Assembly: GCA_963796635.1 (NCBI GenBank)
Contig: CAWCMH010000001.1
Coordinates: forward strand, 2,788,209-2,852,208
Length of the DNA stretch: 64,000 bases
Source: an uncultured Gemmatimonadales bacterium
GTDB taxonomy: Bacteria > Gemmatimonadota > Gemmatimonadetes > Gemmatimonadales > GWC2-71-9
Direction: 5' to 3'
The notes below the pieces were generated by a model, which saw nothing but the letters and a program-made list of their open reading frames with translations, made no database searches and was not told the origin of the DNA. Both the position numbers and the translations under genes were made by a program. Below are positions 6,975-49,011 of this stretch, piece after piece. Positions within the stretch are counted from its first letter, which is position 1; each line of letters begins with the position of its first letter.

Positions 6975-7056
6975 GGTAGGAGTATAGATGCGGGACCGTG
7001 GGGATGGGTTGCGGGAGGCCCCGGCGAACAGGGCCGACGCCGACAAACTCCTGACG

Positions 7057-7098
7057 GCTAATGCCTAATGCCTAACGCCTAACGCCTAACGCCTCCCC
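7057..7098. repeat. Tandem heptamer array (GCCTAAY)x5-6
   Basis: ggctaat gcctaat gcctaac gcctaac gcctaac gcctccc. Confidence 0.8.
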
Positions 7099-7132: not shown

Positions 7133-7723
7133 ATGTGGAAATGGATCGTCGGCGCCGCGCTGGTCCTGGTCGTCGTGCTGGCCGGAACCTGCTGGTGGGG
7201 CTATCGCCGACTCACGGCGGGTGGCGACGTTGCCCGCGTCAGCATCGATGCGCCGCCAGCCAGGGTGTTCGCGTCGCTGGCCGATCCCGATTCGATGGCC
7301 GTCTGGATGAGCACCGGCAGTACGGTAACCGCGTCACATCACGGCATGCTCGCCGTCGGTGACACGGTGCACGTCGACCGGATGGAGCGCGCGCGGCACG
7401 AGCGATACACCTGGACCGTCGCGGCGCTGGTCCCCGATCAGCTGCTGGTGCTCGAAATGCGCAGTGATTCAAGCGGGCAGGCAGTCGCCACCCAGCGCGA
7501 TTCACTGGCACAGCACGGCGACTCGACCGACGTCATCAGTACCATCGCCTCGCCGCTCATCGACTCCCTGCGCCAGCGCCGCGGCGACAGCAGCGCCAAG
7601 GTGCCAAGTGCGATTCTCGAGATGAGCTCGAAGGTGCTGACGTCTGCGCTGCGCGTGCTGGCGGAGCAGGAACTGGATCGGCTGAAGGCGAGGATCGAAG
7701 GGAAGCCGATGCCGGCGAGATAG
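7133..7723 (+). CDS. SRPBCC/START-like domain protein with N-terminal TM anchor (tentative)
   Basis: N-terminal TM helix, then VSIDAPPARVFASLADPDSMAVWM, typical of polyketide-cyclase/SRPBCC N-termini. TATACT at 7101-7106. Confidence 0.55.
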   Translation: MWKWIVGAALVLVVVLAGTCWWGYRRLTAGGDVARVSIDAPPARVFASLADPDSMAVWMSTGSTVTASHHGMLAVGDTVHVDRMERARHERYTWTVAALVPDQLLVLEMRSDSSGQAVATQRDSLAQHGDSTDVISTIASPLIDSLRQRRGDSSAKVPSAILEMSSKVLTSALRVLAEQELDRLKARIEGKPMPAR

Positions 7724-7753
7724 GCGTTAGGGGTTAGGCGTTAGACGTTAGGG
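7724..7753. repeat. Tandem heptamer array (GTTAGNN)x4, inverse complement of the 7057-7098 array
   Basis: gttaggg gttaggc gttagac gttaggg. Confidence 0.8.
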
Positions 7754-7760
7754 GGGACAG

Positions 7761-10232
7761 TCAACCGACGACGAAGTTGATCAACCGCCCTGGCACGTAG
7801 ATCACCTTGCGGACGGTGACGTCGGCGAGATGGCGCTGCACCGCCGCGTCCTGTTGGGCGGCGGTGTGAACAGCGGCCTCAGTGGCCGTCCGCGACACGT
7901 CGACCTGCCCGCGAACCTTTCCGTTGACCTGCACCACGATCGTGACGATATCCGTCACCGTGAGCGCCGGATCGAACGCCGGCCACCGCGAATCGAAGAT
8001 CGACGTGGTGTGTCCCAGCCGCTCCCAGCATTCCTCGGCAAAATGTGGCGCGAACGGCGCCGTCATCTGCACCAGTTCGCTGACGACGGTGCGCTCGGTG
8101 CAATTCTGGTCGCGCAACGCATTGACCAGTTCCATGAGTGCCGCGATTGCCGTGTTGTAGTGCAGCGCCTCGAGTTCGCCGGTGACGCGCTGCTTGGTCT
8201 GATGCCATTTGACCAGGATATCGCGGCGGATTTCGGCGTCACGGCAGTCGGGGTCGATGGCATCGGTCACCAGATCCCAGACCCGGTCGAGAAACCGGCG
8301 CGGCCCGCTGATGCCGGCGTCGCGGAAGTCGCCGCCTTCCTGATAGGGACCCAGAAACATCAGGTAGGTGCGCAGCGTGTCGGCACCCCAGCGCGCGATG
8401 TACTCGTCGGGGTTGACGACGTTGCCCTTCGACTTCGACATCTTGGCGCCGTCCTTGATGATCAGGCCATGCGCCCGGAATCGGCGAAACGGTTCCTCGA
8501 ACGCCAGCAGGCCGGCGTCGTGGAGCACCATCGTGATGAAGCGGGCATACAGCAGGTGCAGCACCGCGTGTTCGTTGCCGCCGATGTAACTGTCGACCGG
8601 CAGCCAGTGCCGCGTGCGGTCCGCGTCGAAGGGCCGATCGGAGAAATCGGTGCTCGGATACCGCAGGAAATACCATGCCGAATCGAGGAACGTGTCGGAG
8701 ACGTCGGTTTCGCGCCGCGCCGCCCGGCCGCACGTCGGGCAGTCGACGTGGTACCACGAGGCGTCGCGCGCCAGCGGTGAGACCCCGGAATCGTCGGGGC
8801 GGATGTCCTCGAGCGGTGGCAGCACGACCGGGAGCTGGTCGTCGGGCACCGGCACGATGCCGCACGCGTCGCAATAGATCACCGGAATCGGCGGTCCCCA
8901 GTAGCGCTGCCGGGAAATGCACCAATCGTACAGGCGGTACTGCGTGGTGCGCCGCACCAGGGCGCCGGACGCAGGTCGCGTCGATTCGAGGTGCGCGAGG
9001 ATCGCATCGCGTGCGTCGTCGGGGGCGAGGTCGCTGAACGCTCCGGAATTGACCACGCGATCGGACGCCGAGTCGCTGACATAGGCCGCCGCAAGTGGCG
9101 CGTCGGCCGGTTCGCCCGTGGCCGCGATGACTCGCACGATCGGCAAGTCGAACTGTCGTGCGAAGGCAAAATCGCGCTCGTCGTGGCCGGGCACCCCCAT
9201 GATCGCGCCGGTGCCGTATTCCATCAGCACATAGTCGGCAATCCAGATCGGCAACCGTCGATCGACGCCGGGGATGGTGGCGTGTGCACCGGTGAAGACA
9301 CCGGTCTTCTCCTTGTCGGCGACTTTGCGCGACACCAGATCACGGGCCGCGACGCTGCTGCGATACTCGTCGACGGCGCGACGGTGTTCCGCCGTGGTGA
9401 TCGCGTCGACCAGCGGATGTTCCGGCGCGACCACCAGGAAGGTCGCGCCGAACAGCGTGTCGACCCGCGTGGTGTACACGGTGATCGCGGCATCATGCCC
9501 GGCGACCGAAAAGGTCAGCTCCGCGCCCTCGCTCTTCCCGATCCAGTTCTTCTGCGCCGTGACCGTGGTCGCCGACCAATCCATCTTGGTGGGGTCGTCG
9601 AGATTCGCGAGCAGGCGTTCGGCGTAGTCCGTGATGCGGAAGTACCATTGCTCCAGCACCCGCTGCTCGACGATCGCCCCGCAGCGCTCGCAGGCGCCGG
9701 CGATCACCTGTTCGTTGGCGAGCACGGTCTTGTCGACCGGGCACCAGTTGACGATCCCCTTCTTCTTGTACGCCAGGCCGCGCTTGAGCAACTGCAGGAA
9801 GATCCACTGGGTCCATTTGTAGTACGACGGATCGGTGGTCGCCAGCACGTGGTCCCAGGCGAACATGCCGCCCATGCCGGCCAGTTGCCGCGTGAAATTC
9901 GCGATGTTGCGCGGAATCAGTTCAGCCGGATGCATCCCCAGCTTGAGCGCAAAGTTCTCGGAATGAATGCCGAACGCGTCGAACCCGATCGGTTCGAAGA
10001 CGTCCTGCCCCTGCATGCGCTTGAACCGCCCGAACACGTCCGCGCCGGTGAACGCGAACAGGTTGCCGACGTGCAACCCCTCGGCCGATGGGTAGGGAAA
10101 CATCATCAGGTTGTAGAACGGGCGCGGCGCCGCGTCGAGATCGGGCTCGTTGGTGCGCCGTTCCGACCAGCGTTGGCGCCACCTGGCTTCGACGGCGTGC
10201 GGATCGTAGGCGGGGCGGGAATCGTCGGGCAT
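7761..10232 (-). CDS. leuS: Leucyl-tRNA synthetase
   Basis: HIGH-type motif (GLHVGNLF), KMSKS motif (AKMSKSKGN), CP1 editing domain, full-length similarity. The start at ATG 10232 (MPDDSRPAYDP...) has TATTAT 5 nt upstream. The ORF-track extension to 10427 runs into a repeat array. Confidence 0.95.
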   Translation of the reverse strand: MPDDSRPAYDPHAVEARWRQRWSERRTNEPDLDAAPRPFYNLMMFPYPSAEGLHVGNLFAFTGADVFGRFKRMQGQDVFEPIGFDAFGIHSENFALKLGMHPAELIPRNIANFTRQLAGMGGMFAWDHVLATTDPSYYKWTQWIFLQLLKRGLAYKKKGIVNWCPVDKTVLANEQVIAGACERCGAIVEQRVLEQWYFRITDYAERLLANLDDPTKMDWSATTVTAQKNWIGKSEGAELTFSVAGHDAAITVYTTRVDTLFGATFLVVAPEHPLVDAITTAEHRRAVDEYRSSVAARDLVSRKVADKEKTGVFTGAHATIPGVDRRLPIWIADYVLMEYGTGAIMGVPGHDERDFAFARQFDLPIVRVIAATGEPADAPLAAAYVSDSASDRVVNSGAFSDLAPDDARDAILAHLESTRPASGALVRRTTQYRLYDWCISRQRYWGPPIPVIYCDACGIVPVPDDQLPVVLPPLEDIRPDDSGVSPLARDASWYHVDCPTCGRAARRETDVSDTFLDSAWYFLRYPSTDFSDRPFDADRTRHWLPVDSYIGGNEHAVLHLLYARFITMVLHDAGLLAFEEPFRRFRAHGLIIKDGAKMSKSKGNVVNPDEYIARWGADTLRTYLMFLGPYQEGGDFRDAGISGPRRFLDRVWDLVTDAIDPDCRDAEIRRDILVKWHQTKQRVTGELEALHYNTAIAALMELVNALRDQNCTERTVVSELVQMTAPFAPHFAEECWERLGHTTSIFDSRWPAFDPALTVTDIVTIVVQVNGKVRGQVDVSRTATEAAVHTAAQQDAAVQRHLADVTVRKVIYVPGRLINFVVG

Positions 10233-10284
10233 GCGGAATAATAAGGTTAGGCGGCGAGCTCGTCGCTCGTCGCTCGTCGCCCGT

Positions 10285-10897
10285 CGCTCAAGCCACGGCT
10301 CGGCCGTGCGAAGTCGCTGACGCGACTGATCCAGGCCAGCGTCATTCAGGACGCCGATGCCGGCGTCACCAAGGTGACGGCTCGGCCGCGCGAGGTCGCT
10401 GACGCGACTGATCCAGGGCAGCGTCATTCATGACGCTTCGCAGGGCCGAGCCGCGGCCTTGGCCGCGCCGGCATTACGCGCGACCGGCAGCCGGCGTCAC
10501 TGAAGTGACGGCTCGGCCGCACGAAGTCGCTGACGCGACTGGTTCAAGGCCAGCGTCATTCAGGACGCCGATGCCGGCGTCACCAAGGTGACGGCTCGGC
10601 CGCGCGAAGTCGCTGACGCGACTGGTTCAAGACCAGCGTCATTCATGACGCTTCGCAGGGCCGAGCCGCGGCCTTGGCCGCGCCGGCATTACGCGCGACC
10701 GGCAGCCGGCGTCACTCAAGTGACGGCTCGGCACCACGAAGTCGCTGGCGCGACTGATCCGGGCCAGCGTCATTCAGGACGCCGATGCCGGCGTCACCAA
10801 GGTGACGGCTCGGCCGCGCGAAGTCGCTGACGCGACTGGTTCAAGACCAGCGTCATTCATGACGCTTCGCAGGGCCGAGCCGCGGCCTTGGCCGCGC
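10285..10897. repeat. Tandem array (about 3 x 215 bp) of a multi-hairpin module, family A
   Basis: GCCGGCGTCAC recurs at 10359, 10490, 10573, 10705 and 10787, giving alternating 83- and 131-bp subunits. Each subunit carries short perfect hairpins: CGTCAC/GTGACG, AGTCGC/GCGACT, AGCGTCAT/ATGACGCT, GCGGCC/GGCCGC. Confidence 0.85.
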
Positions 10898-10919
10898 CGG
10901 CGTACGCTGGAGCCGCCAG

Positions 10920-11744
10920 CTACGTCGTCGGCGTGGCCACGTGCGCGCCGAGGTCGATCGTGAACGTCGATCCGTTGATCGTCGCCGTGGCGCTCGAGGT
11001 CCCGTTGAACGTGATGGTGACCGTGCGGGTGACGGTCTTGCCCGCGTTCGGTCCGGAGGTCAGCGTGATGGTGTAGGTCCGGGTAATGGTCCCCGACACC
11101 GGCCAGCCGTTGCCACCGTCGGCCCGTACCGGCAGGAGGACGTCGGTGACCACGTTGTTGCCGGTGATGTCGTACGAGCGAGTGCTGTCGTTGCGCGTCA
11201 CGCGTGAGCGCGACACGGTTTCGCTGCCCGTGCCGTTGACGTCGCGGGTGGTCTCGTCGCCGGCCAGGCCGCTGACGACGAAATCCCGGTGCCGCTGGAC
11301 GGTGGCAGTCCACGGGCCATGCGTCACCTCACCGGAAATGTCGGCAATGATGTGGATCGACGCCGTGGTGAGCGAGTCGTAATCCGTCTGTTCCTGGCCA
11401 TTGGCGTCAAGGAACGTGACACTGCGCGAAATGTCGAGACCGTTGCGGGTGGTATCGGGACAGACGAAGGTGCCGTGGACGAGACGGCATCCGGTGAGAC
11501 CGGGGTGGTAGCCGTGCGGCGAGATGAAATCCGCCCCGGTGGCGGCGGTGTTGCCGATGTTGCCGTCCATCCCGGTCATGATATCGACATCCTCGGCGAC
11601 CCCGTCGGCGGCGACGTTGGAAATATCGGCCGTGATCGCGGCGTTGTCGATCGAACCGCCGATGCTTCCCGTGGGCGAGTCAGCGCTGTTGCACGCGGCG
11701 GCAATAACCAGCACCGCGGCGAATGCCATTCGGGTACGAGACAT
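10920..11744 (-). CDS. Lipoprotein, unknown function
   Basis: Lipobox VIAAAC after a basic N-terminus. Thr/Gly/Asp-rich beta-type sequence. GAGGA lies 9 nt upstream. Confidence 0.65.
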   Translation of the reverse strand: MSRTRMAFAAVLVIAAACNSADSPTGSIGGSIDNAAITADISNVAADGVAEDVDIMTGMDGNIGNTAATGADFISPHGYHPGLTGCRLVHGTFVCPDTTRNGLDISRSVTFLDANGQEQTDYDSLTTASIHIIADISGEVTHGPWTATVQRHRDFVVSGLAGDETTRDVNGTGSETVSRSRVTRNDSTRSYDITGNNVVTDVLLPVRADGGNGWPVSGTITRTYTITLTSGPNAGKTVTRTVTITFNGTSSATATINGSTFTIDLGAHVATPTT

Positions 11745-31673: not shown

Positions 31674-31770
31674 GGCAAATTATAGGGACGATGCGGGCGA
31701 GGAGCCAGCGCACATTCGGGTTTCGTGCGCGCGTGCTCGTCGCTGAAGCGACGAGGCGGCGTGCGCCCCT

Positions 31771-33426
31771 TCAGCGACGAGGCGCGATCCCAATCGACGG
31801 CATGTCCACCCCGCGCTCCCGCGCCACCGCAATCGCCTTGTCGTAGCCCGCGTCGGCGTGACGCACCACGCCCAGGGCTGGGTCGTTGACCAGGCACAAT
31901 GCCAGGCGCCGATCCGCGTCATCCGATCCGTCGGCGACGGCGACCAGCCCGGCGTGCTGCGAGTATCCCATCCCGACGCCGCCACCGTGATGAAACGACG
32001 TCCACGCCGCCCCGCTCGCAATGCCGGTGGCAAAGTTGAGCAGCGGCCAGTCGCTCACGGCATCCGACGTGTCCTTCATGGCTTCGGTCTCGCGATAGGG
32101 TGACGCGACCGAGCCCGCATCGAGATGATCGCGCCCGATGACAATCGGCGCCTTGAGCGTGCCGTCGCGCACCATGCGGTTGAACATCAGTCCGGCCTGG
32201 TCACGCTGGCCGAGGCCCAGCCAGCAGATGCGTGCCGGCAAGCCCTGGAAGGCAATGCGTTCGCCGGCCCAGCCCAACCACTGCTGCAGGCGCGCGTCGT
32301 CGGGAAAGAGTTCGAGCATCGCGCGATCGGTGGCGGCGATGTCGGCAGCATCGCCGGACAGCGCCACCCAGCGGAACGGGCCGCGGCCTTCGCAGAACGA
32401 ATCGCGAATGAACGCCGGCACGAATCCCGGGTAGTCGAACGCGTTCGCGAGTCCGCCGAGCTGCGCCTGCGCGCGCAGGTTGTTGCCGTAGTCGAACGCC
32501 ACGGCGCCGCGGCGCTGCAACTCCAGGATTGCCTCGACGTGCCGGACCATCGCCGCGCGGGCGCGCGCGAGATATTCGTCGGGCTGCTTCGCACGCAGCT
32601 CGTTGATGTCCTCGTCGGCCCTGGCGGGTGGGATGTAACCCCACATCGGGTCGTGCGCGGAGGTCTGGTCGGTGACGAGCTGCGGCGTGAAGTTCCGGGC
32701 GACCATTTGCGGCAGCACGTCAGCGGCGTTGCCGAGCAGGCCGATCGACAGCGCCCGCTTCTCCTTCGCCGCGCGCGTGGCACGCGCGATGGCGTCGTCG
32801 AGCGACGTCGCCACCTCATCGAGATAGCGCGTGTCGAGCCGGCGCTGGATGCGCGATGCATCGATTTCTATACATAGGCTGACGCCACCGGCAAGCGAGA
32901 CCGCCAGCGGTTGCGCACCGCCCATCCCGCCCAACCCGGCGGTGACGGTGATCGTCCCGGCGAGCGAGCCGCCGAAGTGCTTGTCGGCTGCGGCGGCAAA
33001 CGTCTCGTACGTCCCCTGCAGGATGCCCTGTGTGCCGATGTAGATCCATGACCCGGCGGTCATCTGGCCGTACATCATGAGGCCGAGCTTGTCGAGCCGA
33101 TCAAATTCTTCCCAGGTCGCCCAGTTGGGCACCAGGTTCGAATTGGCGATCATCACCCTGGGCGCCATGTCGTGCGTGCGGAACACCGCCACCGGCTTGC
33201 CGCTCTGGATCAGCAGCGTCTCGTCGTTCTCCAGCCGGTCGAGGGTCGCAATGATCGCGTGATATGCGTCCCAGTTGCGCGCCGCCTTGCCGCGCCCGCC
33301 GTATACGATGAGTTCCTCCGGCTTTTCGGCGACCGCCGGATCGAGGTTGTTCATCAGCATCCGCTTGGCGGCTTCCTGGATCCAGCCCTTGGCGGTGCGG
33401 GAGGTGGAATGAGAGGCGTGCGGCAT
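31771..33426 (-). CDS. hutU: Urocanate hydratase
   Basis: [43 protein letters not shown] and full-length urocanase similarity. I prefer ATG 33426 (TATTTT 5 nt upstream) over the ORF-track start at 33456. Confidence 0.92.
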
Positions 33427-47097: not shown

Positions 47098-47849
47098 GTG
47101 CCAGCCGACCAGGAACTCATCAGTCGATTCCGCCGCGCGCGCACGGACCCCGCGCTCGCCGTGCTGGAAGGCTTTCATGCGCTCAAGCACGCGATGCGTT
47201 TCGGCGCGGTGATCGATATGGCGCTCACGCCGGACGGGGCCGCACTGGAATTGCGCTGGCTCGGGCGCAGCTCGCGCCGGACGTGGCCGAGTGCGATCGC
47301 GACGCCTGGCCGGAGCGGTGCGGCGGAGACATATTCGCCGCGCTATCGCCCACGCCGCCCGAAACCCGCGTGATCGCCATCGCTCGCCGCCGGCACGACG
47401 CGTTGGCGGATGTGCTGGCGAGCACCGCGCCGATCAGTGCTGCTGGAGTCGCCGGCGCACAGCGGCAATATCGGCGCGGCCATCCGGGCGAGTGCCGCGG
47501 CCGGCGCGGGCGGCGTGCTCGCCACGGGCAGTAACGATCCCTGGAACCCCGGCGCCCTGCGCGGTTCGGCCGGCCTGCATTTCGCTCTGCCGGTGATGCA
47601 CGTCGGCATCGATGACGTGCCCCGGGATCGGCTGATCGCCATCGATCCCGACGGTGAATCGCTCGCCGACATGGCGATTCCGGACGACGCCATCCTCGCC
47701 TTCGGCAGCGAACGGCGCGGGCCTGTCGCCCGAACTGCTCGAGCCGCTGTCCGCGACGGGTGCGCATTCCGATGGAACCTGGCGTGTCGAGCCTCAATCT
47801 CGCGACGGCGGTCGCCGTCGTCCTCTACCTCTGGCGGATGCGCGCATGA
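47098..47849 (+). pseudogene. SpoU/TrmH-family RNA 2'-O-methyltransferase with at least 4 frame disruptions
   Basis: Conserved pieces lie in alternating frames: VLEGFHALKHAMRFG, then FAALSPTPPETRVIAIARR, then VLLESPAHSGNIGAAIRASAAAG...AFGSERRG, then LSPELL, then RVRIPMEPGVSSLNLATAVAVVLY. Shifts lie near 47250, 47436, 47719 and 47760. TATAAT lies 7 nt before GTG 47098. Confidence 0.7.
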
Positions 47850-48804: not shown

Positions 48805-48982
48805 GTCATCCTGAGCGGAGCCGCCGGAGGCGGCGCAAGGGAGAAGGGAAACGGGAGGACCGGCAGGAATGTCATCCTGAGCGAAGCGCCCGCAGGGCGC
48901 GGAGTCGAAGGATCTGCTTCGCATGCAACTTGGGACAGCAGATCCTTCGACTCCGGCGCTTCGCGCCTGCGCTCAGGATGAC
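48805..48982. repeat. Family B element: solo arm (48805) plus a 112-bp long hairpin (48871-48982) between convergent genes
   Basis: GTCATCCTGAGCG...GGAGTCGAAGGATCTGC pairs with GCAGATCCTTCGACTCC...CGCTCAGGATGAC. The outer 13 bp and inner 17 bp are perfect. Confidence 0.8.
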
Positions 48983-49011
48983 AGATCGCCCCGAGGCCGA
49001 GCGCCCCATGC

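Follow-up and report, generated by a model that had tools for sequence, protein, structure and literature searches.

The leuS locus and its repeat array

We analysed a tandem array of hairpin-rich repeats in a 64,000-nucleotide stretch of DNA from an uncultured Gemmatimonadales bacterium (hereafter the window; G+C 64-68%). The array lies between leuS (7761-10232, minus strand; TIGR00396, E 3e-274) and a gene on the same strand (10920-11744) for a 274-aa protein whose lipoprotein-type signal peptide ends in ...IAAAC. A deposited LeuS protein (P0001, 823 aa, 100% identical) sets the leuS start at 10232, and organism-named homologues of LeuS, and of FtcD from further along the window, come nearly all from metagenome-assembled genomes (MAGs) of Gemmatimonadales or Gemmatimonadota. 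An earlier note on this DNA, made from its letters alone, had regarded the open reading frames (ORFs) predicted inside the array as translations of the repeat. The deposited LeuS start and the lipoprotein gene-leuS gap of relatives, only 103-171 bp long, agree with this, and for annotation the array explains both a spurious 888-aa extended leuS ORF and the 53-179-aa ORFs within it.

The same note had described a tandem array of about 610 bp made of about three 215-bp super-units, and Tandem Repeats Finder recovered it at 10282-10901 (period 214 bp x 2.9 copies, 94% matches, score 1105); its edge reaches 10277 once a degenerate first arm is counted. The motif GCCGGCGTCAC-NNNN-GTGACGGCTCGGC starts at 10359, 10490, 10573, 10705 and 10787, so that subunit spacings of 131/83/132/82 bp bear out the proposed alternation of 131- and 83-bp subunits. 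Two more matches, at 42593 and 42737, bring the total to seven in the window against 0.00 expected from shuffles. Four perfect hairpins had been ascribed to every subunit, which holds for the 131-bp subunits but not for the 83-bp ones. While AGTCGC-TGAC-GCGACT occurs six times in the array, CAGCGTCATTCATGACGCT (the AGCGTCAT-TC-ATGACGCT hairpin) is perfect in the three 131-bp subunits only, the 83-bp subunits carrying an imperfect version, CAGCGTCATTCAGGACGCC, and GCGGCC-TT-GGCCGC is restricted to the 131-bp subunits. The variation of the first hairpin loop (CAAG, TGAA, TCAA) is as claimed and depends on subunit position, with CAAG always found in the 131-bp subunit.

Our analysis led to a different reading of the layout. 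Instead of a string of independent hairpins in two kinds of subunit, each super-unit consists of a lone half-element, a 115-nt inverted doublet of half-elements (the full element) and a 17-nt spacer (83 + 115 + 17 = 215 bp). On the plus strand, the array begins next to leuS with its most degenerate half-element (10277-10358), which comprises an arm at 10277-10304, AGTCGC-TGAC-GCGACT at 10312-10327 and an imperfect hairpin at 10337-10355, and which scores 35 bits with R1, a covariance model of the arm. It is followed by the first full element (10359-10472, 114 nt), the 17-nt spacer ATTACGCGCGACCGGCA (10473-10489) and a lone half-element of 83 nt (10490-10572), which has a left arm and hairpin 2, carries hairpin 3 in degenerate form and lacks a right arm. 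The reference full element (10573-10687, 115 nt), an identical copy of the spacer (10688-10704), a further lone half-element of 82 nt (10705-10786) and the third full element (10787-10901), which is 100% identical to 10548-10687 over 140 nt, complete the array. The spacer resembles the right flank at 10902-10919. The array is not CRISPR-like, as the earlier note had stated, and we rejected a CRISPR array on the grounds that the spacers are not unique but recur, an identical 17 nt twice at this site and 29 nt at a second site near ligD.

Structure and covariation of the element

The earlier note had overlooked that the two arms of the 131-bp subunit, 39 nt long and 79% complementary, form a long-range inverted repeat. 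The 115-nt core at 10573-10687 is therefore predicted to fold into a single long, imperfect palindrome that carries two hairpins at the tip. The left arm consists of P1 (GCCGGCG), the arm hairpin TCAC CAAG GTGA and P3 (CGGCTCGGC); the right arm, as written on the plus strand, has P1 (CGCCGGC), the arm hairpin CGGC CTTG GCCG and P3 (GCCGAGCCG). In the reference element P1 pairs 10573-10578 with 10682-10687 and P3 pairs 10593-10600 with 10660-10667, the left-arm hairpin is at 10579-10592, the central hairpins at 10608-10623 and 10635-10652, and the right-arm hairpin at 10668-10681. The half-element, of about 55 nt, reads 5' to 3' on the GCCGAGCCG strand as hairpin A, a short spacer, GCCGAGCCG, hairpin B (a 5-bp stem and a 4-nt loop of TTCA type) and CGCCGGC. 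A full element is two of these inverted (95-136 nt), with a dyad-symmetric 115-nt core whose left half approximates the reverse complement of its right half, and the 83-bp subunit comprises a lone half-element and, in addition, one degenerate hairpin.

Terminal inverted repeats, GCCGGCG...CGCCGGC, close every full element. Within the half-element, the invariant motifs GCCGGC and GGCTCGGC bracket hairpins with compensatory stem substitutions, and all arms share the unpaired flanks GCCGAGCC and GCCGGC. GCCGGCG with CGGCTCGGC was found in both orientations, defining 13 arms in the window by motif. Folded as RNA, the core reached -84.6 kcal/mol (z = -8.6) on the plus strand and -85.1 kcal/mol (z = -9.6) on the minus strand; folded as DNA, it reached -50.2 kcal/mol (z = -7.3). 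In the window, moreover, the loop of the left-arm hairpin is complementary to that of the right-arm hairpin (CAAGG/CCTTG at the leuS site, TGAAG/CTTCA at the ligD site).

The arm hairpins have changed in sequence while keeping their shape. In all 27 full arms from the window and related contigs the stems are perfectly complementary, and they are of three types, TCAC/GTGA, CGGC/GCCG and CGAG/CTCG, which become five when the singlets of relatives are added. In an alignment of 11 sequences, four of five base pairs of the stem were altered on both sides, 98.2% of the cells were paired, there were no one-sided or G-U changes, and none of 500 shuffles matched the covariation score. Sliding the partner by one column lowered pairing to 9-26%. 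Covariation over aligned copies, which the earlier note had proposed to look for, is thus present in the arm hairpin stems and uninformative for the long-range helices, a point taken up below.

Copies elsewhere and growth of the arrays

Further copies, which the earlier note had suggested looking for, were found both in the window and on relatives' contigs. With the R1 model, 14 full arms scoring 35-47 bits were detected in the window, all inside two intergenic arrays, together with two partial matches edging the second array (16.8-21.3 bits); everything else in the window scored 17.7 bits or less. This second array (42428-42869) lies 32 kb from the first, between ftcD (minus strand) and the ligD polymerase-domain gene (plus strand), and Tandem Repeats Finder gave it a period of 144 bp x 2.6. 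Its first unit (42428-42563, plus strand, 136 nt) is diverged and would be the oldest; it carries the variant hairpins AGCGTCG-TGTA-CGACGCT, a compensated variant of AGCGTCAT-TC-ATGACGCT, and GCCC-TGCC-GGGC, and a 17-nt fragment of another palindrome family is embedded in it at 42448-42464. The remainder (42564-42869, plus strand) holds full elements at 42593-42707 and 42737-42850, 29-nt spacers at 42564-42592 and 42708-42736 and, running up to the ligD ATG at 42870, a 19-nt flank matching the spacers (42851-42869).

The spacers of the second array are copies of a GATATT box and of the ligD start, with ATG changed to GTG. Each 144-bp unit ends with CCTTCGCGATATTTCTTGCGTGCCCCGTC, which agrees in 26 of 29 positions with the sequence entering ligD, CCTTCGCGATATTTCTGGCATGCCCCGCC, and the first 8 nt of the ligD coding sequence are part of the repeat. 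Since the ligD start ATGCCCCG is conserved in the closest relative, it is the spacer copies that derive from the flank, and this array clearly grew by tandem segmental duplication of the element with its flank, and not by repeated insertion. At the leuS site 12 of the 17 spacer positions agree with the flank beside the stop codon of the lipoprotein gene, a match equalled in 158 of 5000 shuffles, which is only suggestive of a diverged flank copy and of growth by the same route. Because the leuS-site super-units are identical to each other at 190-202 of about 215 positions, and two 140-nt stretches are 100% identical, expansion there would be recent, or else the copies are being homogenised. In each ligD-site spacer the GATATT box is followed by GTGCCCCGTCGCCGGCGTCACTGA, a 7-codon ORF from the ligD start, and the array may therefore hold extra transcription and translation starts that read through the elements toward ligD.

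Relatives of the element were found in a genome collection and in metagenomes. Among species-representative genomes, a collection that does not include the source genome, a TCAC-type arm query gave seven matches, of which one, on a Gemmatimonadales MAG contig (L004), was a true relative and the others coding-sequence coincidences. The L004 contig ends within an element, and such elements may explain contig breaks in assemblies of Gemmatimonadales MAGs. A degenerate two-arm pattern matched at least 120 metagenome loci, mostly by chance in GC-rich coding DNA; the genuine elements among the matches listed were on L014, L025, L048, L051, L103, L111 and L124. L124 is Gemmatimonadales by protein similarity, and L014 is a soil contig with four elements in 4 kb. 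At L014:1700-3900 elements separate tandem paralogous genes for small proteins starting MRF(A/T)ML..., which suggests that whole blocks of gene plus element were duplicated. Four matches in viral contigs were all in coding sequence (three of them in the same conserved coding region), with no copies of the element, and blastn in distant mode found no match in a plasmid collection.

Like those of the window, the relatives' copies are intergenic. The metagenome copies retain exactly GCCGGCG, CGGCTCGGC, GCCGAGCCG and CGCCGGC, while their central hairpins (GCCCG-TGAA-CGGGC, CCGC-TTGA-GCGG) are unrelated to those of the window and one arm differs. They fold likewise (z = -4.5 to -5), and their arm loops are mutually complementary in some copies (L048, L103, L124) and not in others (L014, L025, L111). 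Orientation relative to the neighbouring genes varies, both between L124 and L014 and between the leuS and ligD sites of the window, and no direct repeats that could represent a target-site duplication were found in the 20-nt flanks of 13 elements.

Orthologous sites differ in whether they are occupied. In the closest relative, JGI contig Ga0376646_0000679 (L128), gene order is kept, LeuS and FtcD are both 87% identical to those of the window, and there are two singlets per 44 kb. The lipoprotein gene-leuS gap measures 687 bp in the window, with the full array, and 171 bp in the closest relative, where it contains an unrelated palindrome with 24-bp arms and one half-element (L128:9915-9975; CGCCG-TTTA-CGGCG ... 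GCCGAGCCG TCAG-TTCA-CTGA CGGGG). Relatives with 78-79% LeuS identity have a gap of 103-137 bp with a hairpin and then a T-run, as read by eye, and no element; the stem of this terminator in relatives is lengthened by GAGAGAC heptamers (L131:9864-10010). Because the half-element of the closest relative has the position and orientation of the window's leuS-proximal copy, and both share a CGGG end, this degenerate copy is probably the ancestral one. The ftcD-ligD gap is 462 bp with the array in the window and 94 bp, without an element, in the closest relative. In the simplest history, the leuS-site element would have been gained before the two lineages split and expanded in the window lineage only, and the ligD-site array would have been gained, or lost in the closest relative, more recently.

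Between the leuS-site array and leuS, a TATTAT hexamer at 10238-10243 (minus strand) lies 5 nt upstream of the leuS ATG (10232), and its position is conserved in five related loci (L128-L132), so the array does lie upstream of the leuS -10 box, as had been proposed. Across the window and these loci the hexamer takes the forms TATTAT, TATAAT, CATATT and GATATT, 5-7 nt before the ATG, and it would be the leuS promoter element. No Shine-Dalgarno-like sequence was seen between hexamer and ATG, and this, with the short distance, suggests a leaderless leuS mRNA in this clade. GATATT is found at the same distance from the ligD start in the window, while the ligD of the closest relative is without it. 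A promoter scan returned nothing at either array locus.

Additionally, several further features of the window were noted. Between the array and the leuS -10 box, adjoining the leuS promoter, runs a heptamer repeat, (GCTCGTC) x 4.6 (10258-10289, plus strand). It is one of several 7-mer or 14-mer tandem runs inverted around genes or hairpins (also at 7046-7094, 7721-7752 and 1680-1768): (AACGCCT)7 and (TAGGCGT)4.6 flank the gene at 7133-7723, and 14-mer runs form a palindrome with 31-nt arms at 1680-1766. A second, unrelated palindrome family has the motif GTCATCCTGAGCG...CGAAGGATC / CCTTCGCTGCGCTCAGG and forms a long palindrome at 48805-48990, between an EamA gene and a MacB/FtsX gene. The 17-nt fragment inside the first ligD-site unit belongs to this family, as does the palindrome with 24-bp arms that follows the lipoprotein gene of the closest relative (L128:9841-9912). 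At the 3' end of the urocanase gene (31736-31781), an 8-bp-stem hairpin, CTCGTCGC-TGAA-GCGACGAG, and a partial second copy resemble the hairpins of the array element in stem and loop, with its conserved flanks missing. Lastly, the ATP-dependent DNA ligase gene beside ligD is split between two frames (43727-45672), with DNA_ligase_A_M in 43727-45199 and DNA_ligase_A_C in 45049-45672, and five ORFs tested at 45700-47650, where G+C is lower (0.639), had no Pfam match. The closest relative has an intact 344-aa ligase and a SpoU methylase in this region, and the split could reflect either pseudogenisation or frameshifts from sequencing or assembly.

Interpretation and comparison with known systems

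Taken together, we consider it probable, with room for doubt, that the array belongs to a Gemmatimonadales family of extragenic palindromes resembling repetitive extragenic palindromic sequences (REPs), their hairpin-forming doublets (REPINs) and bacterial interspersed mosaic elements (BIMEs). The earlier note had offered a REP/BIME-like repeat, a structured RNA and a protein-binding platform; the first is supported and the other two are less favoured. The features that match the REP family are dyad symmetry, hairpins between invariant flanks that keep their shape and not their sequence, the occurrence of singlets and doublets, heterodimeric arms, structured spacers, an extragenic site, a patchy spread, no target-site duplication and either orientation with respect to adjacent genes.

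Under this REP-like interpretation, the full element would extrude as a long hairpin or a cruciform with side hairpins, and the element would reach new intergenic sites as single-stranded hairpin DNA, leaving no target-site duplication. The enzyme would most likely be an HUH/Y1 transposase similar to the REP-associated tyrosine transposases (RAYTs), or another enzyme that reads the invariant flanks and the hairpin shape. After arrival, the arrays of the window grew by ordinary tandem segmental duplication of the element and its adjoining flank, clearly at the ligD site and perhaps also at the leuS site. As the leuS-site array sits where relatives have the intrinsic terminator of the lipoprotein gene, any effect on the host would most likely be that of a barrier to transcription, or of a stabiliser of 3' ends, placed between the lipoprotein gene and the promoter of the apparently leaderless leuS. 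For local expression the relevant change is that an array adjoining two promoters has replaced a terminator.

Several observations weigh against this interpretation. No RAYT/Y1 or other transposase domain was found in the ORFs of the 64-kb window (Pfam on 50 ORFs, NCBIfam on three others) or in the gene tables of the related loci. The arms have no unpaired GTAG or CGTC tag, the defining feature of most catalogued REP families. Because P1 and P3 never vary, covariation speaks neither for nor against their pairing, and the two could be no more than inverted, conserved recognition sequences. Furthermore, the window has just two loci per 64 kb, and about 115 kb of DNA from other relatives is without any arm, so the distribution of the family among relatives is patchy. 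Assignment to the CGTC-type REPs was itself rejected: the CGTC of CGTCAC...GTGACG is paired, no other arm type contains it, and neither the length of the stem nor the tail agrees with that class.

Unlikely, though worth keeping in view, is that the scaffold GCCGGC ... GGCTCGGC / GCCGAGCC ... GCCGGC with its four interchangeable hairpins represents a third REP tag class with its own Gemmatimonadota enzyme, from a new HUH clade or a non-RAYT nuclease, or that a multi-helix functional RNA of 95-115 nt has been mistaken for selfish DNA.

A related proposal, that the array encodes structured RNAs (a 3'-UTR element of the lipoprotein gene, small RNAs or a regulatory leader of leuS), seems to us decidedly unlikely. 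In its favour, very strong folding is predicted (z about -8.6 to -10), the hairpins covary, the array directly follows a stop codon in place of the relatives' terminator, and REPs are often transcribed and can act at the RNA level (PMC3733652). Nevertheless, the two strands of this dyad-symmetric element fold equally well, which selection at the DNA level fits better, the arm stems have no G-U or one-sided changes, and orientation to neighbouring genes is variable. A search of the whole window with Rfam 15 gave no match at the gathering threshold, and in E-value mode the array returned noise (microRNA and small-RNA models at 8-22 bits, the best at 21.7 bits against a threshold of 80). Scans for intrinsic terminators (hairpin plus T-run) found no site in 10100-11100 or in 42350-42950, and the window contains no tRNA or tmRNA; a curated Rfam family and a canonical terminator were both rejected after these scans. 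A leuS leader or T-box was rejected as well, given that the conserved -10 box separates the array from leuS, that leuS seems to be leaderless and that relatives do without the array. Lastly, as close relatives lack it, neither gene needs the array for expression.

Transposition of a more conventional kind is improbable. A classical miniature inverted-repeat transposable element (MITE), that is, a deletion derivative of an insertion sequence (IS) with a DDE transposase, mobilised via its terminal inverted repeats, would account for a size of 95-136 nt, the GCCGGCG...CGCCGGC termini, intergenic dispersal and filled versus empty orthologous sites. It would not account for the missing direct repeats around all 13 elements examined, for lone half-elements with a conserved structure of their own, or for internal hairpins that are swappable modules and not the decayed interior of an IS. 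No transposase lies nearby, and the DNA analysed contains no IS with these termini that could be a parent.

Quite improbable, in our view, is that the array serves as a platform of double-stranded DNA for a regulator or nucleoid protein, with GCCGAGCCG and CGCCGGC as operators whose multiplication tunes the leuS and ligD promoters. Motifs of 8-9 nt do remain invariant across diverged genomes while their surroundings change, and both arrays adjoin promoter regions, but compensatory stem changes are unexplained if the DNA stays double-stranded, elements on other contigs also lie between co-directional genes and after stop codons, and in the closest relative these genes do without arrays. It is highly improbable that the array is an artefact of assembly, or a duplication confined to this site and not part of any family. 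The source is a MAG, with LeuS on a 3.2-Mb contig, and a neighbouring gene has a frame split of the kind that sequencing errors produce, but the super-units differ from each other at specific positions, and both a second locus and assemblies made independently from other samples contain the same modules.

As a probable REP-like family, the array represents a known kind of bacterial "junk-or-helper" DNA and not a new system, and it opens no new biological question. Most catalogued REPs come from Proteobacteria, with some from a few other phyla. A literature search combining Gemmatimonadetes with RAYT or REP returned nothing relevant and no REP paper for Gemmatimonadota, and as far as that search shows a REP/REPIN-like family appears undescribed for the phylum. 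For work on REPs, its invariant flanks, freely covarying stems and lack of a GTAG or CGTC tag make it well suited to finding out which enzyme recognises elements of this kind, and whether REP-like DNA can spread without a RAYT.

Several known palindromic repeats are comparable. In E. coli, BIMEs, which Gilson and co-workers are said to have described, reportedly consist of intergenic palindromic units that alternate in orientation, with few conserved linkers and a variable repeat number; the array is likewise a mosaic of alternating palindromic units, of unrelated sequence. Enterobacterial repetitive intergenic consensus sequences, or intergenic repeat units (ERIC/IRU), and the Correia elements of Neisseria are imperfect intergenic palindromes of 100-150 bp; they can fold into a single long hairpin and influence how adjacent genes are expressed. 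A TA target duplication and defined terminal repeats characterise Correia elements, whereas no target duplication was seen here, and to our knowledge the side hairpins and modular exchange of our elements are not features of ERIC or Correia elements.

A closer similarity is found with the GTAG and CGTC REPs (Di Nocera et al. 2013, PMC3733652), which form head-to-head heterodimers of partners with different stems and whose spacers of 20-100 bp may hold two stem-loops. Our elements share with them the different-stem dimers, the spacers with two stem-loops, the 4-5-nt loops and a location mostly downstream of coding regions, between co-directional genes, and with the CGTC-type families also the lack of a dedicated transposase nearby (PMC3733652). 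Unlike these REPs they have no unpaired tag, CGTC occurring only within the stem of one arm type, and unlike the CGTC families, whose stems measure 8-9 bp and have A/T at positions 1 and 2 (PMC3733652), they have stems of 5-8 bp and no CCA tail.

The REPINs of Pseudomonas fluorescens SBW25 (Bertels & Rainey 2011, PMC3116915) differ from our elements in having a GTAG tag, one hairpin per half instead of two, a RAYT gene, of which none was seen in the window or in the gene tables of related loci, and a proteobacterial host as opposed to Gemmatimonadota. In addition, it is the flanks that are invariant and the stems that vary in our elements, unlike in SBW25. In both systems, two inverted short palindromes produce one long hairpin, singlets resemble remnants and copies are extragenic. 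Moreover, SBW25 REPINs occur in ordered clusters of near-identical elements with flanking sequence, repeated in tandem over up to about 700 bp (PMC3116915), and both arrays of the window share this architecture of tandem element plus flank, with a weak flank match (12/17) at the leuS site.

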